A stretch of DNA of 64,000 nucleotides from a virus (IMGVR_UViG_3300037047_000216:1-64000); one strand, 5' to 3'. Shown: positions 28,894 through 41,434, counted from the first letter of the stretch. The notes: generated from the sequence alone by a model not told the origin. Made by a program: numbers and translations.

Positions 28894-28974
28894 TGGACAC
28901 GGGGGCAGGATTTGAACCTGCGTGATTTTCTGGGTATGAGCCAGATGAGGAAAACCGGACTCCTCCACCCCGTA
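28894..28974 (-). tRNA. initiator-type tRNA-fMet(CAT)
   Basis: 1:72 non-Watson-Crick (T:G), GGAG D arm, loop CT-CAT-AC, CCA. Confidence 0.85.
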
Positions 28975-28981
28975 GTATCAG

Positions 28982-29054
28982 AGCGGGTCACGGGTCTCGA
29001 ACCCGCCACCTTCAGCTTGGGAAGCTGACGCTCTACCTGATGAGCTAGACCCGC
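28982..29054 (-). tRNA. tRNA-Gly(CCC)
   Basis: loop TT-CCC-AA. Confidence 0.92.
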
Positions 29055-29528
29055 ATTGAGGGGGACTAAGAGGGCCACCCTGCCCAGAGGACGTTCCCCT
29101 TCGGGATGTCCTCAACATAGTCCCATTACCCCCAGAGCCTCTTGGGGTTCCGTCTCTACGTTAGACGGTGTACGTTTTTGGTGCCCAGTTAAATCTGGGC
29201 CGGTTGTTAACGCACCTCCGGAAAAGCGGTCTCGATTTGTACGTGTTCGAGCCGCACGCCCAATTGGTGATGGGGCTGGGACCCCATTGGTGGCGACCTT
29301 ACGGTCGGGTGAGGAACCACCAAGTCTGCGAAAAGGTACGGGTCTACCCCCGATGGGCACCAGACGACTTAGGTCATCATTGGGTCGTCCGTCCTCTTCT
29401 CCCAGGCGAAAGATGACTCATCCCTGGTTCCGAGTACTTCATTCCGGTCGGAAGCTACCCGTTTCCCTACAGGTTATGACTCCAGTAGGGAAGTTTCTCT
29501 GGTACAGAAAGCATTCTGTACACTCAAG

Positions 29529-29896
29529 AGGAGGCGACGGGAGTCGAACCCGTGTCCGAAGTGTCGTCAACCAAGCGTCTACGTGTGTAGAACCATCGTT
29601 TTGATCTCGGGCACGGGTTTGGCCGGTCCTCGCCATCTCCCGAACCCCTCCCTCTTGTGGGTTTCAACCCGCGGTCTGTGAGGGCCACCCCCGCGGTATC
29701 AAGCTCACCTAAATAACGTTCTCCGGGGCCGATGAGCCCTCCCCTTTGAACGGGCGCGGCCGATTGTTAGGCGGCCATCGCCATGGGTGCTTCGTTGCTG
29801 TTGGCAATTAAGCTGTGTCCTGCTTTTTACGAGGTGCAAGACATCCCCGACACGCTGCTTGACCTCAGTTCACCCCGTCGAAACCGTTACGCCCCC
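29529..29896 (-). ncRNA. ssrA: tmRNA; tag reading frame 29767-29805 encodes ANSNEAPMAMAA*
   Basis: 5' GGGGGCGTAACGGTTTCGAC, 3' GGGTTCGACTCCCGTCGCCTCC, G3:U70, TTAATT before the resume codon. Confidence 0.93.
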
Positions 29897-30315: not shown

Positions 30316-30744
30316 TCAGTCTCCCGACCCAGTAGCACGCCGGTTCGGGCACCGTGCAGGTCGTCTATGTCAAGACCCCGAAGGGAACTATCAAGCGAGA
30401 CGTTGCCTGCTTCAGCTTGGTTTGTCAAATCCCTTCTCCACCGACAGATCCAAGCATCGTGTCGTGGAAGAGTCCGCGTGTAGCCCCCGAGAGTGCCTTT
30501 CAAGGTCGGCCTCAAGATGCCGACTCACCCCAGGACACGTGAACCGGGCCAGTGGGGGTTTCACCCGTTGCCATTCCCCTTATGAGCCCCAGTTGCTCTC
30601 AAATTCGAGGTTTGGCACCGCTTTCATCACCCTGTTCCCTAAGTGAGGGGCTGGGCAGGGCTTTACAGCGTCCGTTCAGGATCAATGCGGCCCCCTCCGC
30701 CCCGTGCCGGGTTTCTATGGGGGTCGCTCCCCTGGCAAGTGATC

Positions 30745-30772
30745 CTACTCGAAACCGCGTCCGGATGATCCC
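30745..30772 (-). promoter_or_regulatory. phage promoter motif
   Basis: GGGATCATC-N13-GAGTAG. Confidence 0.75.
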
Positions 30773-30913
30773 CAGGATTTGAAAAATCGATCCTGGAAAC
30801 TAAAATCCTGTCCGGCCAAAACATGCTGAAAACGGGGGTACGCCCCTCGAACACAGTGCTCCGGATCCAGTTGGCACCTTGGAACTCTCCCCCCTGTTCT
30901 ATCCGGGTGAGCA

Positions 30914-31153: not shown

Positions 31154-31933
31154 TTATTTTTTGGCGTTCCACCGAGCAAGCCACGCTTCCGCAGCTTCAA
31201 CAGCATATTCCATGTCAAGGAAGATCCCTGCCTTCTCTTTGCGGAGACCGTTGTAAACCGTTGTTGCGGCCCAGGTGTAACCCCCAGCCAAGTTCTTTTG
31301 GACTCGAACACTACCATCCGGACGTTCCCAGGCCCGCAATCCTTTTAGATCCGGCTCCACGATAACCAGTTTGTGTTTTCTCGCGATGCGACGTTCTACG
31401 GCTTCAAAACGCATGTCCTGGTCAAGGATCTGACGGGGTACTGGTCTCCCAGTTAGGCGTCGATAACAGTCTACCCCCATCACCCCTTTGTTGGTGATCA
31501 GAGCCCATTTGGTCAAACCGGAACCACAGATGTCACAGGTATAGCTTTCGCCTTCGACTAAAGGGTCGACAACCCGTTCGATTTCCACCGAGGAGGCTTT
31601 TTTGGACGGTCGCACACGACGGGAGTCCGCATACGCAACATCCCCGTCGATGTTGATCCCCTTACCCTCGGTGAAGACTACCCTGATCCGTTTGACACTA
31701 TCGAAGTTGATCTGTTTGATATCTTTGTATGTGCGTTTCCGGTCCGGGTCGTTGTCGTTGAGGTACATGACCTCGTAGTGGTCAACTTCCCGTTTCCCTA
31801 CCGCCCGCTCAACATCCGCACGGGTCACGGAAGGTCTCTGGGCTGCGGAGTGGCACATCCCCATGTTGGCGGACAACCACCTGGAGGCAATTCGTTTGGC
31901 ACACGACGATTTTTCGGGTTCAAAGTTGAACAT
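31154..31933 (-). CDS. hypothetical protein with KRIASRWL motif and CDICG finger
   Basis: GAGGAGG SD. Confidence 0.7.
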   Translation of the reverse strand: MFNFEPEKSSCAKRIASRWLSANMGMCHSAAQRPSVTRADVERAVGKREVDHYEVMYLNDNDPDRKRTYKDIKQINFDSVKRIRVVFTEGKGINIDGDVAYADSRRVRPSKKASSVEIERVVDPLVEGESYTCDICGSGLTKWALITNKGVMGVDCYRRLTGRPVPRQILDQDMRFEAVERRIARKHKLVIVEPDLKGLRAWERPDGSVRVQKNLAGGYTWAATTVYNGLRKEKAGIFLDMEYAVEAAEAWLARWNAKK

Positions 31934-31977
31934 GAGATCCTCCTCTTGGAGAACTCATGTATAGAGACTGTAACGGA

Positions 31978-32052
31978 TGGAGCGAGCAACGGGAGTCGAA
32001 CCCGTCTAAAACAGCTTGGAAGGCTGTCGCCCGACCGCTAGGCCATGCTCGC
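31978..32052 (-). tRNA. tRNA-Gly(TCC)
   Basis: loop CT-TCC-AA, CCA. Confidence 0.92.
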
Positions 32053-32109
32053 ATTTTCCCGGGCGCCAAGCGCCCGGGAACGTTAGTATCGCAGGGATTT
32101 TCTCCCTTG

Positions 32110-32691
32110 TCAACCGATTCTGACGATCCCTGAGGGCAGGATGTGGTAACTGCGCTTCTCCCCCATCTCCAGGAACCGCTGGGCTACGAGTGCCATCTGG
32201 GCGGACACGAGCGCGTGGAACGGGAGGTTCCGTCCGTCTTCGCACGTAGCCTGCCCGGAGTCGCCTCCCTCGTCGATCCTGAACATCTCGTCCCACACGA
32301 CCCGTCCGAGCGTTCCTGCGCCATCCATGGCACCGTGGAGGCAAGGGATTCCCTGTGCCCGAACGAACCTCTGGATGACGTGCCTTGCCTCGGGGTTGTC
32401 GACGCAGTCGAGGACGAGTGCCGCCCCACCCAGGAGCACCTGGACGTTGTCAGCCGTCAGGCGGTTTGTGTTGGCCTCGATTTTGAGCCCCCACATCGCC
32501 TGGAAGGCTTGCTGGAGCGCCTGGGTTTTGTTGCGGCTCACCCCCATCTTGGTGTGGAACTGTGACTGGGTATTTTTGGTCTCTACCCGATCTGGGTCAA
32601 CAAGTCGAATCTCCAGGGGGAGATTTCTAATGAACAGCGCCACATGGCTCCCCAGCGCTCCTACACCGACGATGACGACTGGATTGGTCAT
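32110..32691 (-). CDS. ThiF/E1-like ubiquitin-activating enzyme
   Basis: IVGVGALGS, DPDRVETKN, NK, LDCVDN, candidate catalytic Cys in QATCED. Confidence 0.88.
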   Translation of the reverse strand: MTNPVVIVGVGALGSHVALFIRNLPLEIRLVDPDRVETKNTQSQFHTKMGVSRNKTQALQQAFQAMWGLKIEANTNRLTADNVQVLLGGAALVLDCVDNPEARHVIQRFVRAQGIPCLHGAMDGAGTLGRVVWDEMFRIDEGGDSGQATCEDGRNLPFHALVSAQMALVAQRFLEMGEKRSYHILPSGIVRIG

Positions 32692-32703
32692 GGATTTTTC
32701 CTA

Positions 32704-33180
32704 TCAGGATAGGGGTTCCATCGTGAACCGCCCCATCCGCATCTCCTTGATCCTGGTGACGGGCTTTTCGGCCTCGTCCCCCATTGCCAAGGCCGCCACG
32801 ATCTCCTCCGAGATTTCGTTGACGATGGCGACGGGCTCGTTGAACGCCATCTCCGGGAACCCTATTCCCCAGCCATGTTCGTCCAGGATCTCCCATATGT
32901 TCAGGTTTCCGTCTGTGACCCCACCCGCGTAGCTCAGGAACAGATCGCGGATCTCGTCCTCCCCGACCGGCTGCCATTCCCGGATGGGCTTGGAGCAGTG
33001 GGGGCACACCGGCCGGTCGTCTTTTTGGGCATGTTCCCATTCGGCGGCGATTTTGAACACCTGCCCCAGATGCCGTAGTCCGTCGAGTACCGTCTCGAAC
33101 CCCGTCCGGTGATGGAGGACGAGGCAGCCGTTGCTGCTCGACTCCACGTAGCCACCGTACAGAACGAAGATACGGATCAT
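32704..33180 (-). CDS. hypothetical protein with CPHC finger
   Basis: within Ubl operon, 4-nt overlap. Confidence 0.65.
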   Translation of the reverse strand: MIRIFVLYGGYVESSSNGCLVLHHRTGFETVLDGLRHLGQVFKIAAEWEHAQKDDRPVCPHCSKPIREWQPVGEDEIRDLFLSYAGGVTDGNLNIWEILDEHGWGIGFPEMAFNEPVAIVNEISEEIVAALAMGDEAEKPVTRIKEMRMGRFTMEPLS

Positions 33181-33386
33181 TGGGAGGACTCCTCCTCGAT
33201 CTCGACCAGGATCCGGAGTCGGGAGTTTTTGAACCCCGTCCGGGTGACCTCAGTGTAGGTCTCGATGTTCAACGAGACCCACTCGAAGGGGCTGTTGCTG
33301 TTTGGCGGACACTCTCCGTTGAGGAACCCTTTGAACGATCCCTCGGCATTCAACATCAGTGTCCGCTCGAACCGCCGAGTTGTCAT
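33177..33386 (-). CDS. hypothetical protein
   Basis: ATGA overlap with Ubl stop. Confidence 0.55.
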   Translation of the reverse strand: MTTRRFERTLMLNAEGSFKGFLNGECPPNSNSPFEWVSLNIETYTEVTRTGFKNSRLRILVEIEEESSQ

Positions 33387-33640
33387 GCGAACCGGGTCTT
33401 CGGGCGAACCAGAAGCTGATTCGGGAACCCGTTACCCGCCGGGACGCGCTCGATCTCGAAGCCGCTCAGGTCGGCGTCGGGATCCGCCGTGATGTTGATC
33501 ACGGACCCGCTCCGGATGGCCTCCTGTGCCCACGCCCGGACCTCCACGTCCGTCGCGTCGTAGTAGACCGGGTTCGGCAAATCGCCCTGTTCACCGTGGT
33601 AGGTGATGTTCAGCCGTGCCTGATTTGCTTCCATCTTCAT
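33383..33640 (-). CDS. ubiquitin-like (beta-grasp) small protein ending RPKTRFA
   Basis: ARLNITYHGEQGDLPNPV.YD...VRPKTRFA*; lies between JAB and E1. Confidence 0.7.
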   Translation of the reverse strand: MKMEANQARLNITYHGEQGDLPNPVYYDATDVEVRAWAQEAIRSGSVINITADPDADLSGFEIERVPAGNGFPNQLLVRPKTRFA

Positions 33641-34449
33641 CCTCCGTTTCGTCTGGACCGTCGTCGAAGTTCCGCACTGTCAGCTACTCGACTCGGTGGT
33701 TCGATGATCCCATAGTTGTACCGATCCGGACCCACCCACCGGAAATATCTGATGGTGGAAAATGTCACGATCGGCCAGATCAAACGTCTGCCCAGTCCAT
33801 CTTCGATGGCCACAAACGTCGTTCGGTCTTCCCAGGATGGATGAGGTTCTCCCACCCACGGATGCGTGTGAGCCACCCCACCGAGGTTCTTTCGGTGCTC
33901 CCAGATCACTTTCCACAGAAGGGAACTGTCCGGGATACTGACGGCCGTTCTTCCCGGAGGGTCGTGCCAGTAGATGGTCTTCCCGCTCGGATCGAACACG
34001 AGTGCCACCTCGATGACCTCGTGATCGTCCTCCCGCGTCCCCGCGTCAAGGGACTCGAAGATTTCCCGGACGCAGGTTTCCATCTCCAGCCAGAACTCTG
34101 GCTCCTCGAACGTGAAATCCTTAACGTCCTTTCGGAAGTCATAGGATTTCATCCACTCGACCCAGGTGCTGTATCCCCGAGCCCCCCCGGTGTCGTCATA
34201 CCACCCGATCCAGTCCCCGCCGATACGAGACAACTGAAATCGTTTGGCGATCTCCCGAGAGACGCTGGTTGCGAATTCGGAGTTTCTACCCCCAGATGTA
34301 TAGGCCACCTCCAGCACATTGGCTGGTTTCCACTGAAACCAGCATCCATACTCCCCCTCCACTCCGATCTCCGGGGCAGAAAAGAGGTACTCCTGGCATC
34401 GAGCGTATTCTTCTGGGGTGCTGAATTCGAGCCAGCGTTCTTGACCCAT
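33637..34449 (-). CDS. JAB/MPN+ metallopeptidase with N-terminal extension
   Basis: IEV...AHTHP...PSWED (E..HxH..S..D). Confidence 0.8.
   Translation of the reverse strand: MGQERWLEFSTPEEYARCQEYLFSAPEIGVEGEYGCWFQWKPANVLEVAYTSGGRNSEFATSVSREIAKRFQLSRIGGDWIGWYDDTGGARGYSTWVEWMKSYDFRKDVKDFTFEEPEFWLEMETCVREIFESLDAGTREDDHEVIEVALVFDPSGKTIYWHDPPGRTAVSIPDSSLLWKVIWEHRKNLGGVAHTHPWVGEPHPSWEDRTTFVAIEDGLGRRLIWPIVTFSTIRYFRWVGPDRYNYGIIEPPSRVADSAELRRRSRRNGG
33684..33711 (-). promoter_or_regulatory. phage promoter motif inside the JAB 3' end, upstream of Ubl
   Basis: GGGATCATC-N13-GAGTAG. Confidence 0.75.
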
Positions 34450-35399
34450 CAGTCGTCGTCCATGTCCATGTCACCGTCCCCATGCCGAAACACATGAAGA
34501 CGATGCGTATCCATTCCCTCACGGATGACCGTGGGTAGGGACTCCAGTGTGAACAGCCGGTCGTTTCCAGCCAAACACACTCCAGCCTCCACTACCCGAA
34601 GCGTCCTGGTTTCGACGACGCATTCCAATCGTCGGTGTCGATACCGATACTGGACGATCATCTCCCCGCGGTTCACGTTCGGGCGGGAAGCCAGAAACTC
34701 CGCTCCCCCGATTGCCAAGGCCGCCCGTGCGGCTGCCGGAAAATCATGTTCTGCCAGCGCACGGCGTCCCGCGGCGGTACCGATACTCCGGAGTGCCTCT
34801 TCCATCTGCTCCGCGCGCAGCCGCTGCCGATCTTCCTCCGCACGGCGTGCCGTCGCTTCCCGTTCCCGCCTCTCCGCCTGCACCCTTTGGTGGGATAGCC
34901 AACGGAATGCGAGATCAAGTGCCGGGGTAACACCGGAGATGGCATCTACAGATGTCAGGCGATCCAGATAGGCACTCTCGACTTCGGCCTCAGCCCCTTG
35001 TGGGAACTCCATTCGGGTGTAGATGAGGTTTCCGTCCCGATCCCGAATTGCGACCGCACGGCTGAAAGTTTCGAGCCCCAGTGGGACGAGGGCTACATGA
35101 ACCGTCTGATCAAACAGTTTCTCGGGGTTTGGGTCGACCCGAACGTTATCCGGGATCAGGCGATCTCCCACAAGATAGCCCCGAACGATCTGATGCCCTC
35201 TCTCGAACTCGGGATCCTGGTCGGCTTCACGACCGACACGAGCGTTACGGCTCCCGTCCACGGCGAACTCGTACCACCCGTACTCAGCAGGAAGCCGACC
35301 AGTCACCCGCCAAGATCGGTCTCGACAGTGAACTGTCCGCCCTCCGATCCATGGGAGGACAATCGCATGGCTGGTTTCGATCAGATCTCGCCATCCCAT
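34449..35399 (-). CDS. putative E2-like protein (coiled coil plus C-terminal AGVCL)
   Basis: AGVCL echoes the E2 G-x-(I/V)-C-L catalytic motif; first gene of operon. Confidence 0.5.
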   Translation of the reverse strand: MGWRDLIETSHAIVLPWIGGRTVHCRDRSWRVTGRLPAEYGWYEFAVDGSRNARVGREADQDPEFERGHQIVRGYLVGDRLIPDNVRVDPNPEKLFDQTVHVALVPLGLETFSRAVAIRDRDGNLIYTRMEFPQGAEAEVESAYLDRLTSVDAISGVTPALDLAFRWLSHQRVQAERREREATARRAEEDRQRLRAEQMEEALRSIGTAAGRRALAEHDFPAAARAALAIGGAEFLASRPNVNRGEMIVQYRYRHRRLECVVETRTLRVVEAGVCLAGNDRLFTLESLPTVIREGMDTHRLHVFRHGDGDMDMDDD

Positions 35400-35421
35400 G
35401 GACGACCCTCCTTGGACTAAA

Positions 35422-35449
35422 CTACTCGGATTGGGTGGGAGATGATCCC
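35422..35449 (-). promoter_or_regulatory. phage promoter motif
   Basis: GGGATCATC-N13-GAGTAG. Confidence 0.75.
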
Positions 35450-35462
35450 GGAAAGATCTAGG

Positions 35463-36029
35463 TTAGCGGAGAAGAGACTCCATCTCGGGGAAGTGCCTTT
35501 GAAGCATGTTCCGTTTCTGTCCCCCGAGACCGATGAGATCGTGCTGCAGTTCTTTTCGGGCAGTCCAGTACTGCTCGTTGGCTTTGTCCGCACGCTCTTG
35601 GAGCCCTTTCAGTTTCGTTTGGGTCTCTTTCGGGAGTTGCTTGAAATAGCGTCCTCCCGGTTTGACCTGATTCAAGTTGGTGACATCCCGTGTAGGGATC
35701 TGCGCCGCCGCTTCATAAGCGGAATTTTCGAGATCCCTGGAACTCTCAGAGTACTCCTTGGAGATGGGACCCTTGTCCAGATCTTCCATTTTCTTGAGAA
35801 CCGGCCCGACCTGCGGGTCGTCCTTGAGCTTCTGTTTGGTCTGCGGGTTTGCGGAGGGTTTTACCTTGTGCTTGGACTTGTCAGCATCCGGATGCTCCTT
35901 CAGATACTGCTGAAGCTGCTCCTTGGTGCTGAACTCCATAGCTGTCCTCCGTAGAATTGGAACCAGATGCTGACGCAGTTCCGGGACTTCATGTGCCAGT
36001 CGGATTAATTCATTCCTGAGCAATTTCAT
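35463..36029 (-). CDS. hypothetical protein (LIRLAH..PELR.HL motif)
   Basis: GGAGG SD. Confidence 0.7.
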   Translation of the reverse strand: MKLLRNELIRLAHEVPELRQHLVPILRRTAMEFSTKEQLQQYLKEHPDADKSKHKVKPSANPQTKQKLKDDPQVGPVLKKMEDLDKGPISKEYSESSRDLENSAYEAAAQIPTRDVTNLNQVKPGGRYFKQLPKETQTKLKGLQERADKANEQYWTARKELQHDLIGLGGQKRNMLQRHFPEMESLLR

Positions 36030-36080
36030 GTTGCCTCCACAGCTAACCTGATGGAGGCACTCAAAAGGATCTTTACCGAA

Positions 36081-36329
36081 TCAGGATGTTGGGGCTACAT
36101 AGCCCGTATCCTCGATCCATGTTTTCGTGTCCGGGTAGCCGAGATCCGACGGGGAGATCCATCCGATGCAGTTGGTTCCTTGCATGACGGCCATGGAGCC
36201 CGCGTACCCGCGAAGGGGTAGCACCGTGAAACCAGGCTCCATTTGCCGGATCCGAACATTCGGTACGAATACCCGGAGATGATCTGCTCCTGGCGCTCCG
36301 TAGTAACCCCATTCACCGTCGTGCATCAC
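36081..36329 (-). CDS. hypothetical protein
   Basis: GTGA overlap. Confidence 0.55.
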   Translation of the reverse strand: MMHDGEWGYYGAPGADHLRVFVPNVRIRQMEPGFTVLPLRGYAGSMAVMQGTNCIGWISPSDLGYPDTKTWIEDTGYVAPTS

Positions 36330-36679
36330 TTTGCCTTGTTCCGTGCCCTGGCCTGTGCTAGCTCATCCGGGTCGAGGAGCGCCATCAGGATGTCGTCCAT
36401 CGTCCGGCAGAAACCCTCCGGGAGGGACGTAATCCGACCGTTCTCGTCCGGACCAACGCACAGGCCCTTGTACATGATCCGAAGCGGAAGGTGAAGCATG
36501 CCCCGGGCGTGCATCAGGCGAGCCGCGTCGATCAGCACCTGAGACCCGACGAGAACTTGGACCTCGTCCTCCCCACGCTCATGATTGAGGATGTCCCCAT
36601 CATTCGTGACACGGATCCAGTCGAAAACGTCCCCGTCCCTGACGGCTTCACCATGCTTGGCATCGTAGTGCAGGATCAT
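36326..36679 (-). CDS. hypothetical protein
   Basis: GGAGG SD, downstream of promoter motif. Confidence 0.65.
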   Translation of the reverse strand: MILHYDAKHGEAVRDGDVFDWIRVTNDGDILNHERGEDEVQVLVGSQVLIDAARLMHARGMLHLPLRIMYKGLCVGPDENGRITSLPEGFCRTMDDILMALLDPDELAQARARNKAK

Positions 36680-36709
36680 GTAACCTCCAGGGCACCCTGC
36701 CCCCTCTGA

Positions 36710-36737
36710 CTACTCAGATGGGGGACAGGATGATCCC
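36710..36737 (-). promoter_or_regulatory. phage promoter motif
   Basis: GGGATCATC-N13-GAGTAG. Confidence 0.75.
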
Positions 36738-36742
36738 AGGAG

Positions 36743-38665
36743 TTACAGCTGGAGGAGCGGGGTGTCCAGGATCTCCTGGATCAGCGTTTTGCGCGGCTGC
36801 GCGGCGGGCGTGGCACGGCGAGCCATCGAAACCGGCGTCGACGCGATGAGGTTGCGCAGCGTGCGGGTGATCGCGTAGGGGTCGCTGAACAGCGACTCCT
36901 CGATCGTGAGGCACGGGATCCCCATCTGCTGGGCCGTCCAGCGGACGATCTCGCCGTTCTCCCCCGGAACTTTCAGGAGCCCGAAAGCTCCGGGCGTCAC
37001 CCCGTAGGTGCGGAACACTTCGATCATCCGCTGGTTGTTGTACTCGCCCTCGTCTCCGACGAACAGGAACAGCGCATCCTCATCCGGACCCGGCTTGTGC
37101 GTCCGGAGCAACACCTCGACGCCAGCGGCGTAACACGTGCTGCCACCCGCGTTGAACCTCGAGAACGCGTTCTCCACGCCCGCCGAGGTCGGTGCCTTCA
37201 GCGTAACTTCGACCCCGATCGAGTCAAACACGCTGATGTGGGTACGGTCGGTCGGGAACCCTCCGAGGAACCGAGTCAAGTACTCTTTGGCCTTCGCGAT
37301 TGCCGTATGCATCGATCCGGACTTGTCGATCACCCAGTAGACACGCATGCCCCGGGTGGCTTCCTCCATCACACGCGCCGTAGCCTTGTCCGCTGCTTCC
37401 TGGAGGGCTGCTACGTTTTCGGTTTTCCGGACACGCAAAGCGACGTTCGCTGCCCGCTGGTTGGTGGCAGTCGCCCGCGCCACGGCCACCTTAGCGGCGA
37501 CCGACGGCACCTTGAGTACGTCCAGTTCCTCCAGCAGCGCGTAGTGGATGATCATGTCCGCGTTGGACATGCACCCGTTCTCGATCGCTGCGACCGTGAT
37601 GGCGCACGTCAGCCCTCCCCGGTAGCCGTTCGCCGGGGTTTTCACGTCCGCAGGCAGCGGGGCCGGGAGCATGCCCACGATGCGCTTCCAGTTCGGCTTG
37701 TCCTTCTCGATCCGGTTGCCGATCTCGGTCTCGGACAGGCCCACCCAGGACTCTGCCACCTTGACAGCGGCTCCGATCGCCAGTGCCCGGCGTCCGTCCG
37801 CGGCCTGAACCTGCTTCCAGCGCAGCACCTCGAAGAACCTCGCCGTGAGCGGTTTGAAACCGATCCGGCGTGCGAGTTCCATGATGGTCGTACGCCACCC
37901 GCTCTTGACGTCGCGCTCCAGTACCTTCGGGTTCAGTTCCCGATTGCGCAGCCACTTCTCGACGGCTTTCGGGTAGCGCCCGAGGAACGCCGACCGCGCG
38001 GAACGGCCGAAACCGAGTTCCCGGTTGATGGCCGCGATGCCCGGCAGTTCGAGGAACTTTCCGACTCGGAGCAGAAGCTTCGCGTCGAATCCGGTTTTTC
38101 CGCGCAGGAGGCACATGGCCTCCCCGACGGTCCTGAAGTCGTCATCGAGGAATTCGACGGTTCCGTCGGCGCCCCGCACGGGCTCTCCTGTCCGATTCTG
38201 AACGAGCAGGAATGCGGCGAGCACGACTTTCAGGTCACGGTGTTCCCGTGCCCATGCCCACGAGGCCCAGTGTGCGACGAACTCATTGTCCGACTTGAAA
38301 ACCTCTGCGACCTGTCGGTACATCCAGATCGCGACCTCCGGGAAGAACCCAGAGGTGCGGTACTGGCCGATGACACGGTTCCCGTCCCTGATGGCCCCGT
38401 CATCTCCGAGGACGCCGATGCGCGTACGGATTTTCCGCATCTTGCCCCGTCCCGCGGGAACCTGTTCCTCGCGGTACACGTTCTTCTGCCCGTCCTCCAG
38501 TTTCCAGGAGCACGGTTGCCACTTCACGCCGATGTTGGCGCTCGGGTCGGGAGTGATGTAGCCTGGACGATTGTGAATCAGGTGGTCGAGGTACTGCGCC
38601 ACCGTGTTGACGATGCGCTCGGCCGGGCCGAGGGTTTCCAGACGTTCCCGAGAGACGGCGACCAT
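36743..38665 (-). CDS. Ro60-like TROVE helical domain plus vWA protein
   Basis: C-terminal VIDKSGSM, GGST, FVGDE MIDAS; helical N-half with DNEFVAHWA, LGFGRSAR..W, GWRTTIMELARRIGFKP resembling Ro60 segments. Confidence 0.65.
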   Translation of the reverse strand: MVAVSRERLETLGPAERIVNTVAQYLDHLIHNRPGYITPDPSANIGVKWQPCSWKLEDGQKNVYREEQVPAGRGKMRKIRTRIGVLGDDGAIRDGNRVIGQYRTSGFFPEVAIWMYRQVAEVFKSDNEFVAHWASWAWAREHRDLKVVLAAFLLVQNRTGEPVRGADGTVEFLDDDFRTVGEAMCLLRGKTGFDAKLLLRVGKFLELPGIAAINRELGFGRSARSAFLGRYPKAVEKWLRNRELNPKVLERDVKSGWRTTIMELARRIGFKPLTARFFEVLRWKQVQAADGRRALAIGAAVKVAESWVGLSETEIGNRIEKDKPNWKRIVGMLPAPLPADVKTPANGYRGGLTCAITVAAIENGCMSNADMIIHYALLEELDVLKVPSVAAKVAVARATATNQRAANVALRVRKTENVAALQEAADKATARVMEEATRGMRVYWVIDKSGSMHTAIAKAKEYLTRFLGGFPTDRTHISVFDSIGVEVTLKAPTSAGVENAFSRFNAGGSTCYAAGVEVLLRTHKPGPDEDALFLFVGDEGEYNNQRMIEVFRTYGVTPGAFGLLKVPGENGEIVRWTAQQMGIPCLTIEESLFSDPYAITRTLRNLIASTPVSMARRATPAAQPRKTLIQEILDTPLLQL

Positions 38666-38726
38666 GGGATCCTCCTACGTCGCCCCGCAGCGCACAGCGA
38701 AGAAGCACAGCCACGGGAGAGCCTTC

Positions 38727-38806
38727 GCTTGTAGGCTCGGGTTAAATTGCCCCCTGTTTACAGGGACGAGTTCGAGAGCAGACGCAAATGCGTCGCTCCC
38801 CCGTGT
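38727..38806 (-). promoter_or_regulatory. structured multi-hairpin 5' leader of the TROVE gene
   Basis: CACGGG/CCCGTG closing stem (3' strand at 38711-38716) with GACGC/GCGTC, CCCTG/CAGGG, GAGCCT/AGGCTC arms. Confidence 0.55.
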
Positions 38807-38814
38807 ACGGTTAG

Positions 38815-38842
38815 CTACTCGATTTCGGGATCTGATGATCCC
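38815..38842 (-). promoter_or_regulatory. phage promoter motif
   Basis: GGGATCATC-N13-GAGTAG. Confidence 0.75.
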
Positions 38843-38892
38843 AGAGGAGGGAAAAAGGATCAGGAACACGAGTTGCGAAGCTGGTTACAAGG

Positions 38893-38965
38893 TGCAGAAA
38901 GTCGGACTTGAACCGACGACACACAGCTTACAAGGCTATTGCCCTACCAACTGGGCTATTTCCGC
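38893..38965 (-). tRNA. tRNA-Thr(TGT), second copy with different body
   Basis: loop CT-TGT-AA; GCGGAAA/TTTCTGC. Confidence 0.88.
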
Positions 38966-39008
38966 GTGTAGGCTCCGACGAGTGTGTTCCTGATTTTTGA
39001 TGGAAGGG

Positions 39009-39194
39009 TTGCGGGGACGGGTTCCATCACCAAGCGGGTACTTATGAGGGGGCACCCTGCTGATCCTCGGGATCGCGCAAGCGCAAGCACCTAGATCAGC
39101 GGCTCCCGAGGGAGCCTCCTGGATCACAGAACACTGGGTTCTGGTGCCGTCCCGCAGGTGTTTCACTGCGGAAACACGGAACCCGACCCCGCAA
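39009..39194 (-). ncRNA. 186-nt multibranched structured RNA
   Basis: 17-bp closing helix TTGCGGGGTCGGGTTCC/GGAACCCGTCCCCGCAA with one U-U; inner CCGCAG/CTGCGG, GGCACC/GGTGCC, GGCTCCC/GGGAGCC, GCTGATC/GATCAGC. Confidence 0.6.
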
Positions 39195-39367: not shown

Positions 39368-39438
39368 AGTGGAACCGGAATCGCACCGGCAACCTTCAGC
39401 TTGGTAGGCTGACGCTCTATCTAATTGAGCTATCCTTG
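39368..39438 (-). ncRNA. tRNA-like RNA, anticodon ACC, broken acceptor stem, TGCGATT T loop
   Basis: intact D and anticodon arms (TCAGC-CTACCAA-GCTGA); only 3 acceptor pairs. Confidence 0.6.
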
Positions 39439-39913: not shown

Positions 39914-39986
39914 AGCGGGCGAGGGGACTCGAACCCCCGGTCTTCGGCATGGCAAGCCGACGCTCTACCAACTGAGCTACACCCGC
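39914..39986 (-). tRNA. tRNA-Gly(GCC)
   Basis: loop TT-GCC-AT. Confidence 0.93.
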
Positions 39987-41112: not shown

Positions 41113-41434
41113 TGGGCTCAGAGGGACTCGAACCCTCGACCACCCGATTACTTACCGCACCGGGTTTCCCCGGCCCTATTGGTTGCGGTCTGGACCATAT
41201 CTTCACCCGCGAGTAATTACCCGGTAGGGTGCTCGGCGTATGGCCTCTGAGGACTCTCCCTTTTCAGGGGTTGCCTGCTGATTGCCCAATCTTTCCGATT
41301 TTCACTGCCCACTGGTGGCGAGTACGGAAAGCTCTAAGGGTGTTCCAGCATACAGCCGAGTTTTCACCCGTCCCTTTCAGGACGGGGCTCCCATCACCAA
41401 AAGTCGGATGCTCTACCAACTGAGCTATGAGCCC
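41113..41434 (-). tRNA. tRNA-Lys(TTT) interrupted by a group I intron
   Basis: joining exons gives TCCGA-CTTTTAA-TCGGG. Confidence 0.88.
41151..41399 (-). mobile_element. 249-nt group I intron without ORF
   Basis: core-like ATGCTGGAA, AATCAGCAG, CAGAGGCCAT, AAGATATGGTCC; P7 GGCCATA/TATGGTC; terminal G. Confidence 0.88.

Follow-up and report, generated by a model that had tools for sequence, protein, structure and literature searches.

The 64,000-nucleotide (nt) stretch of DNA analysed here, IMGVR_UViG_3300037047_000216:1-64000 (the window), covers 64 kb of an IMG/VR virus record that totals 74 kb, and carries one copy of a conserved gene cassette. On a single strand and in this order, the cassette encodes a protein with a von Willebrand factor A (vWA) domain, a protein with a conserved cysteine (protein A), a JAB/JAMM metallopeptidase, a probable ubiquitin-like protein (Ubl) and a minimal ThiF-type E1 enzyme. 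The arrangement is found in 76 loci of huge phages, and most of the complete loci among 68 bacterial ones have the same five genes in the same order. We consider it somewhat probable that the cassette is a module for the activation and conjugation of the Ubl that serves an RNA-linked complex of the vWA protein. An initial annotation of the window had described a phage-encoded ubiquitin-like conjugation operon that was captured to tag host defence proteins, or whose Ubl and JAB peptidase act as decoy and deconjugase. The phage-borne core of Ubl, E1 and JAB peptidase is borne out by our analysis, whereas the capture for defence tagging and the decoy function find no support here.

The parent record is about 14% complete according to CheckV, and the window contains 41 tRNA genes and one transfer-messenger RNA (tmRNA) gene. 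With a record of only 74 kb, these values indicate that the window is a piece of a very large phage. The public sequencing runs that contain it are groundwater metagenomes.

Distribution and gene order of the cassette

The relatives of the locus were recovered only by an exhaustive HMMER search and by profile scans: blastn of the locus against 50,697 phage records gave no matches, scans of IMG/VR with protein A alone or the JAB peptidase alone recovered no relatives, and a word-based search with the Ubl returned only the Ubl itself. The profile scan of IMG/VR yielded the 76 phage loci, mostly on contigs of 130-620 kb, and the 68 bacterial loci were obtained by scanning one genome per prokaryotic species with an alignment of the vWA protein. 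Among the open reading frames (ORFs) of the phage loci, jackhmmer identified 79 for protein A, 78 for the JAB peptidase, 75 for the Ubl and 72 for the E1; the vWA protein, with a length of about 630 aa, was found in 77 phage loci by the same search and in 68 bacterial loci. The order JAB-Ubl-E1 is present in about 70 phage and about 45 bacterial loci, and in about 15 loci the Ubl gene directly abuts that of the E1. The vWA gene often abuts the gene for A; in other loci, the gap is filled by HNH homing endonucleases or unrelated small ORFs. Two families of these endonucleases are located in or beside the cassette in 29-34 related loci (for example L002:5941-6624), and their insertions often separate the Ubl from the E1 gene, or the A from the JAB gene.

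The bacterial carriers include a 5.9-Mb Leptonemataceae chromosome, contigs of 6.9 and 3.3 Mb, a 1.3-Mb contig of Verrucomicrobiales, and the isolates Paraliomyxa miuraensis and Spirillospora. The carrier genome assemblies belong to the Myxococcota, Verrucomicrobiota, Leptospirae and Actinomycetota, and mis-binning of phage may account for many contigs of metagenome-assembled genomes (MAGs) of the Myxococcota, which are at about 50% identity. In a tree of the vWA proteins, viral and genome labels are intermixed, with at least 10 changes between them. Because of this intermixing and the possible mis-binning of MAG contigs, the direction of transfer cannot be given.

In the window, where all genes discussed here lie on the minus strand, the conserved unit begins with the vWA gene (36743-38665, 640 aa), which had been missed in the initial annotation. 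The six co-directional ORFs that had been recognized at 32110-35399 are indeed all there: protein A (34449-35399, 316 aa), the JAB peptidase (33637-34449, 270 aa), the Ubl (33383-33640, 85 aa), two small ORFs termed p69 and p158, and the E1 (32110-32691, 193 aa). Thus, the operon had been delimited correctly as far as these six genes are concerned, but not at its start. Neighbouring ORFs share 1 or 4 bases where they meet at four junctions (A/JAB at 34449, JAB/Ubl, Ubl/p69 and p69/p158); p158 and the E1 gene are separated by a spacer of 12 nt, and an AGGAGG sequence is located 7 nt 5' of the ATG of A. All motifs that had been quoted for the proteins were found again, i.e. AGVCL in A, HTH...S..D in the JAB peptidase, the VRPKTRFA end of the Ubl, and GxGxxG, DPD, DCVDN and ATC in the E1.

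Activating enzyme, peptidase, probable modifier and candidate transfer enzyme

The proposed minimal E1 proved to be a clear ThiF-type enzyme. It matches Pfam ThiF with 80.6 bits (cut-off 28.1; E 1.3e-22; 80.2 bits in a six-frame search), the NCBIfam model for the SAMP-activating E1 at 1.1e-13 and E. coli ThiF (PDB 1zud) at 1.2e-08; in PADLOC, it matches Cap2-type E1-E2 models at 1.5e-11 and BilD at 1.2e-4 (18.9 bits). The protein corresponds to the ThiF-type adenylation domain alone, with a short crossover loop. In 85 homologues, the GxGxxG motif (G9/G11/G14), D32, K55 and D95-C-x-D98-N99 are invariant. The same is true for T149-C150 in the crossover loop (85/85), which we take to correspond to the crossover-loop cysteine of ThiF and MoeB, and judged by the alignment Cys150 is a putative acyl-acceptor cysteine as in the E1-like superfamily. 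The second-best structural relatives of the E1 are ThiF-type chains of the PDB entries 9egb, 9egc and 9egd, for which a literature search turned up no paper.

For the JAB peptidase, the match to Pfam Prok-JAB (17.6 bits, E 0.0036) is below the cut-off of 25, and there are no matches to Cap3 or BilC in PADLOC. However, the residues of the JAMM motif, E147, H194, H196, S205 and D208, form a complete metal site that is invariant in 94 of 94 homologues. The catalytic core covers approximately the residues 140-270; the N-terminal part of about 138 aa is an extension for which the related loci contain no homologue, and the relatives are mostly 120-140 aa long.

The Ubl did not match Pfam or solved Ubls by sequence, and a comparison of its profile with solved structures gave only chance-level hits. 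Its ESM Atlas model (pTM 0.76) has among its neighbours outside of its own family PB1, FERM_N/RA and a ubiquitin domain, each of them a beta-grasp fold, with modest TM values of 0.50-0.59, and parts of class I tRNA ligases score similarly. Based on the model, the 85-aa protein is probably a beta-grasp Ubl, so that of the earlier description the RFA ending stands, and the fold only with this qualification. The family, with 75 members in phage loci in addition to bacterial ones, has a characteristic C-terminal region: 112 of 112 non-redundant relatives from phages and bacteria contain the sequence ...[LIV]RPKTPF-G. About one quarter of them terminate at this FG, the others add 1 to 15 or more variable residues, and in a few a zinc-ribbon-like tail with CxxC motifs is fused after the FG. 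In two phages (L057:7103-7423 and L070:12307-12630), the Ubl frame continues beyond the FG into such a tail. In sequence terms, an FG followed by a variable tail is what marks a modifier in which a peptidase would expose the glycine.

The copy in the window lacks this C-terminal glycine. It ends with ...RPKTRFA and is the sole family member among 113 with an alanine, so RFA cannot be regarded as a family trait. The window Ubl is also free of a tail and trimming would thus not be needed. The statement in the initial annotation that some CBASS (cyclic oligonucleotide-based antiphage signalling system) nucleotidyltransferases (CD-NTases) end with RF(G/A) and are adenylated by Cap2 was correct: The C-terminus of E. 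cloacae CdnD is ...QKTGRFA (10.1101/2022.03.31.486616), and Cap2 substrates have a C-terminal glycine or alanine (PMC10097602). A change of glycine to alanine in a Cap2 substrate reduces conjugation and increases the amount of the thioester (PMC10097602). Since Cap2 takes alanine, this residue is chemically acceptable at the terminus; as a single outlier, however, the RFA end cannot bear a general argument for mimicry.

Protein A had been regarded as E2-like. Its family is large, with 452 representatives in a library at 50% identity (155 of them below 1e-30), and has no matches in Pfam, PADLOC, PHROGs or NCBIfam. A very confident AlphaFold model built with 100 sequences (pLDDT 94.7) consists of two OB-like barrels (residues 1-135), a helix of 46 residues (159-204) and a C-terminal alpha/beta domain (205-316). 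In the latter, two helices lead into a meander of four strands, which is followed by a loop with the invariant G273-x-C275-L276 and by a final helix. Of 116 homologues, 46 of them from bacterial assemblies, 115 retain Cys275. The cysteine is located four residues past strand 4 in a D-A-G-x-C-L sequence, and it is not preceded by an HPN motif. Structural comparison of the whole model with Foldseek gave OB proteins as the best hits (E 9.4e-3), and with VIA the inter-domain of Mpa with its double OB fold (Z 5.3), barrels of RNase R/II and cold-shock type (Z about 4), and the UEV domain of Tsg101 (Z 4.0, root-mean-square deviation 4.0, 90 residues aligned), which is within noise. With the C-terminal domain modelled separately (pLDDT 76), PepSY/DsbC-N-type domains came first (Z 4.4-4.8), followed by RWD-type domains of FANCL, Spc24/25 and Ctf19-Mcm21 (Z 3.3-3.9), all of them within noise. 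None of the Foldseek and VIA hits listed for A was a Cap2, Bil, Bub, ATG3/ATG10 or UBC chain; the viral library BFVD gave nothing, a feature search of the ESM Atlas with residues 205-316 gave no usable match, and the profile of A found solved structures only at chance level. Moreover, UQ_con had no match at E ≤1 in five near-complete related phage genomes. The order of secondary-structure elements in the model of A is compatible with a minimal E2, but the searches did not recover the UBC fold. Hence, the AGVCL motif and the invariant cysteine of the initial description hold, whereas a UBC fold or an E2 profile (UQ_con, Prok-E2_A-E, the Cap2 E2 or BilB) was recovered neither with AlphaFold, Foldseek and VIA nor in Pfam and PADLOC. 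Given the conservation of Cys275, A is in our view a candidate transfer enzyme whose fold is unrecognised, and we do not assign it to the E2 family.

The vWA protein and the tRNA-rich surroundings of the cassette

The vWA protein consists of about 420 N-terminal residues of unknown fold and a C-terminal vWA domain (Pfam VWA_2, 4.7e-07) in which the metal-ion-dependent adhesion site (MIDAS), D447-x-S449-x-S451, is invariant in the family. Ro60 (Rsr) forms particles with Y RNAs, and the RNA repair operon rsr-yrlBA-rtcBA is controlled by RtcR (PMC4201824, PMC7790460). The cassette protein is reminiscent of Ro60 in being a roughly 600-aa protein with a C-terminal MIDAS vWA domain that is encoded beside genes for tRNA-like RNAs, and one bacterial cassette lies directly downstream of RtcR. 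In contrast to Ro60, it is missed by the TROVE and vWA_Ro60 profiles: neither matched any of 45 family members or three bacterial members, and TROVE had no match at E ≤1 in the five related phage genomes. In hhalign comparisons with the canonical Ro60-type proteins of Paraliomyxa, only the vWA part aligned (92% probability), and the N-terminal parts gave probabilities of 0.5-1.6%. A TROVE/Ro60 identity was thus supported by none of the sequence tests, neither with profiles nor with hhalign. The Paraliomyxa genome contains, besides its cassette copy (L106), two canonical Ro60-type genes elsewhere, one with TROVE alone and the other with TROVE and vWA_Ro60 (L148 and L150); the cassette vWA protein is therefore not simply the Ro60 of this organism. 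We know of no Ubl machinery that is associated with Ro60.

The cassette resides among genes for tRNAs and tRNA-like RNAs. One or more tRNA genes flank it in 66 of the 76 phage loci, and the phage flanks contain 863 tRNA genes in a total of 1,220 kb, nearly all of them on the cassette strand. The 700 nt that precede the vWA gene include a tRNA in 28/70 phage loci and 17/63 bacterial loci, and in a dozen or more bacterial loci a tRNA or tRNA-like sequence is located directly before the vWA gene or after the E1 gene. In the window, the gene for tRNA-Thr(TGT) (38891-38965) is 225 nt upstream of the vWA gene, and that for tRNA-Gly(TCC) (31978-32052) 58 nt 3' of the E1 stop codon, both on the cassette strand; the latter position is also occupied by a tRNA in L106, L110, L121 and L131. 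Hits for tRNAs or tRNA-like sequences are found in or adjoining the cassettes of the chromosomal loci L117, L118, L121, L106 and L114, in the first three of them between the vWA gene and A. Since this neighbourhood is seen both in phages and in bacteria, the complex that would be tagged probably handles such RNAs. Y-RNA-type families of Rfam had no match near the cassettes. On the 6.9-Mb bacterial contig (L137, 6044-8000), the gene directly upstream of the cassette encodes RtcR (Pfam 8e-75), a regulator that senses damaged tRNA (PMC7790460). In the 365-nt gap between the RtcR and vWA genes, a T-arm ending in CCA precedes an acceptor/D-arm segment, so that tRNA-like pieces are present in permuted order; no sigma-54 consensus was detected in this gap, and in the locus it matches as often as expected by chance. 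RtcR was also considered as a general neighbour of the cassette, and this was rejected: L115 and L142 show only proteins with a sigma-54 AAA+ domain, at a distance of 4 kb.

In a groundwater metatranscriptome, low-depth contigs cover E1/p158, p69-Ubl-JAB, JAB and A, and the vWA gene is partly uncovered; such contigs do not show transcript starts, ends or strand. Two other regions of the minus strand stand out by a depth of 130-208, as compared to 1-4 over the Ubl cassette: the tmRNA with an adjoining ORF-free stretch (28934-29867), and an ORF-free stretch of about 420 nt (30335-30801), where one RNA fragment terminates in adapter sequence at 30723. Both seem to be abundant RNAs and are candidates for non-coding RNAs. 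Upstream of the vWA gene, the RNA array also includes a partial tRNA-like match (39371-39435, minus strand; 46.9 bits, model positions 5-66) that was not called by ARAGORN. A match to the Rfam group I intron is located at 41170-41410 (minus strand; 56.5 bits, gathering score 50), and in DNA contigs of two runs position 39984 is joined to about 41122-41406, suggesting forms without that stretch.

Four further ORFs of the window are accessory. In the 144 related loci that were checked, p69 (33177-33386, 69 aa, ATGA overlaps at both ends) and p158 (32704-33180, 158 aa, one CxxC) have no homologues. In the interval between the vWA gene and A, p117 (36326-36679, 117 aa; phrog_12026, 3.2e-05) has a single homologue, immediately upstream of A in L018, and p188 (35463-36029, 188 aa) has homologues at the same position only in L006-L008. 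As judged from this distribution, all four are local extras of the window outside the core; at the position of p158, some relatives have small CxxC...CxxC ORFs, and in others the Ubl itself is extended there by a zinc-ribbon-like tail. The 296-nt gap between p117 and p188 (36030-36325, minus strand) folds slightly better than shuffled sequences (z -2.15) and has no Rfam matches. Finally, a promoter ahead of the operon and a second one inside the JAB gene had been proposed, and neither was recovered: a sigma-70 consensus scan of 31900-39100 gave 2 sites with 1.7 expected, none of them upstream of A, within the JAB gene or at the positions that had been claimed. The best sigma-70-like site of the region (32085-32113, minus strand; 10/12 with an extended TG) overlaps the final bases of the E1 gene and is oriented toward the tRNA-Gly gene.

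Possible mechanisms and relation to known systems

If the cassette is a conjugation module, the JAB peptidase would trim the tail of the Ubl and later strip conjugates, and the E1 would adenylate the exposed C-terminus and then hold the Ubl as a thioester on Cys150. From there, the Ubl could move to Cys275 of A, which would make A a functional analogue of an E2 without the UBC fold; alternatively, it could be passed directly to the target. The vWA/MIDAS protein would be the partner or target of this reaction. It is tempting to go one step further and to speculate that the Ubl, the minimal E1 and a cysteine enzyme without UBC fold modify or control a particle of the vWA protein and tRNA-like RNA, and thus represent a kind of Ubl system that has not been described. 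We offer this more specific version only tentatively. The acceptor of the Ubl would then not need to be a protein lysine: Atg8, which is conjugated to a lipid, ends with F-G just as the Ubl family of the cassette.

Several observations weigh against a conjugation module that serves an RNA-linked complex. The E1 family lacks the phosphate-binding arginine of the N-x-x-R-Q motif and has a serine instead (NTQSQ in the window protein aligns with NLQRQ of ThiF in 1zud; the family consensus is KNxxSQFH), and it also lacks the N-terminal helix that bears the arginine finger in MoeB, as only 8 residues precede the GxGxxG motif. By their conservation, the invariant R22 and R103 might replace the absent arginines. 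As to protein A, none of 100 family members matches an E2 family in Pfam, and UBC-type folds score no better than unrelated alpha+beta4 domains. The association with tRNA genes is in part synteny inherited among related phages, and thus does not reflect independent events. RtcR is a neighbour in just 1 of the 68 bacterial loci, the contigs from RNA libraries over the cassette have a depth of 1-4 and could be DNA carry-over, and each of the catalytic steps is one that we infer.

Protein A is also the point at which a serious rival explanation departs, which differs from a conjugation module with A as transfer enzyme only in the role of this protein. As in archaeal sampylation with SAMP/UbaA/HvJAMM1 and in the Thermus TtuB/TtuC system, the E1 alone would charge the Ubl and pass it to lysines, and A would be a substrate, an adaptor or an RNA-binding subunit with another role for its cysteine. 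The lack of a recoverable UBC fold or E2 profile in A and of UQ_con matches in the five near-complete relatives fits this idea, and so do the two N-terminal OB-like barrels of A, which resemble those of Mpa, RNase R/II and cold-shock proteins and would suit binding. On the other hand, A is conserved most strongly in its GxCL loop, in phages and bacteria alike, as is seen more often with catalytic residues than with surfaces for binding. The cassette shares with the SAMP1-3/UbaA/HvJAMM1 and TtuB/TtuC systems a small Ubl, here probably of the beta-grasp type, together with a single E1 of ThiF/MoeB type, a JAMM peptidase, and the absence of a recognisable UBC E2. The Ubl of the cassette, however, ends with FG (FA in the window) rather than GG, its E1 of about 190 aa is devoid of a rhodanese domain, a zinc site and the N-terminal helix, no PP-loop thiolase is linked to it, and its two obligatory genes for the vWA protein and the cysteine protein A have no counterpart in those systems. 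Taken together, we regard tagging without any E2 as unlikely, even though it deserves to be taken seriously.

We judge it improbable that the cassette is a sulfur relay, in which the Ubl would be an E1-charged thiocarboxylate carrier of the ThiS, MoaD, TtuB or Urm1 type that thiolates the neighbouring tRNAs, with the cysteine of A as a persulfide carrier. The close sequence relationship of the E1 to ThiF and MoeB, its invariant cysteine that we presume to match their crossover-loop cysteine, and the location among tRNA genes are all in keeping with such a function, and JAB peptidases serve sulfur carriers as well, as with CysO/Mec and QbsE/QbsD (see also PMC1779556). Yet the cassette contains no PP-loop thiolase, with ATP_bind_3 above the cut-off in only one of the five near-complete relatives, none of the five core genes encodes a rhodanese or a cysteine desulfurase, the FG or FA terminus differs from the GG of known carriers, and the vWA partner would have no role. 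We think it still less credible, and in fact very improbable, that the cassette acts in counter-defence, be it with the Ubl as decoy and the JAB peptidase as deconjugase against type II CBASS (Cap2/Cap3) or Bil, or by the tagging of host defence proteins. This idea draws on the resemblance of ...PKTRFA in the window to the C-terminus of CdnD, on the acceptance of terminal glycine or alanine by Cap2, and on the match of the E1 to Cap2-type models, but the RFA tail is unique to the window among otherwise PFG-containing relatives, and neither the JAB peptidase nor A matches a Cap3, Cap2, BilB or BilC model of PADLOC. Moreover, the entire cassette is present in bacterial chromosomes, including the contigs of 3.3, 5.9 and 6.9 Mb, and is thus not a phage-specific counter-weapon; an E1 of its own would be superfluous for a pure decoy, and the constant link to the vWA protein and the usual one to tRNA genes would be left unexplained.

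As in type II CBASS, a bacterial E1 would activate a C-terminal glycine or alanine on a short extended tail (...KTRFA in the window, ...KTGRFA in CdnD), and a JAB peptidase would reverse the reaction, and the similarity extends to the E1-E2 models that the E1 matches in PADLOC. In the cassette, however, the substrate is a dedicated Ubl of about 85 aa rather than a CD-NTase, the E1 (193 aa) stands alone instead of forming part of an E1-E2 fusion, A and the JAB peptidase match no Cap2-E2 or Cap3 model, and its occurrence is not restricted to defence contexts; CD-NTase, Cap3 and effector models of PADLOC were unmatched by all six window ORFs. The Bil (BilABCD) and Bub operons encode a Ubl together with an E1, a peptidase for deconjugation and a transfer enzyme (10.1101/2023.09.26.559546; PMC11601596), a set of functions that the cassette would share with A as the candidate transfer enzyme. 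Of the Bil proteins, only BilD is matched, weakly and by the E1, and the other five ORFs match no BilA, BilB or BilC. The E2s of Bil and Bub are of the UBC type, whereas A is not recognisably so, Bub uses serine oxyesters and a Ser-His protease where the cassette has two candidate carrier cysteines and a JAMM peptidase, and neither system has a vWA partner.

We found no description of the cassette in full-text literature searches that combined jumbo or huge phages with Ubl, JAB or ThiF, vWA with ThiF, JAB and phage, and Ro60 with RtcR and Ubl, and a 2021 overview of jumbo phages mentions neither JAB nor E1. To our knowledge, the bacterial Ubl systems described to date fall into two classes, sulfur relays and anti-phage defences (CBASS Cap2/Cap3, Bil and Bub). 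The cassette thus provides a third setting, in which a core of Ubl, E1 and JAB peptidase is tied to two unknown proteins and is conserved, in huge phages as well as in bacterial genome assemblies, over hundreds of protein clusters. Its five genes are small, and with two candidate catalytic cysteines and one defined cleavage site it offers a compact system. If A is indeed a transfer enzyme, it would be an analogue of the E2 enzymes that differs from them in its fold. Should the vWA protein form an RNA-binding particle, RNA quality control would be connected with the tagging of proteins outside the eukaryotes, and tagging would be coupled to RNA surveillance or to the sensing of tRNA damage both in bacteria and in their huge phages.

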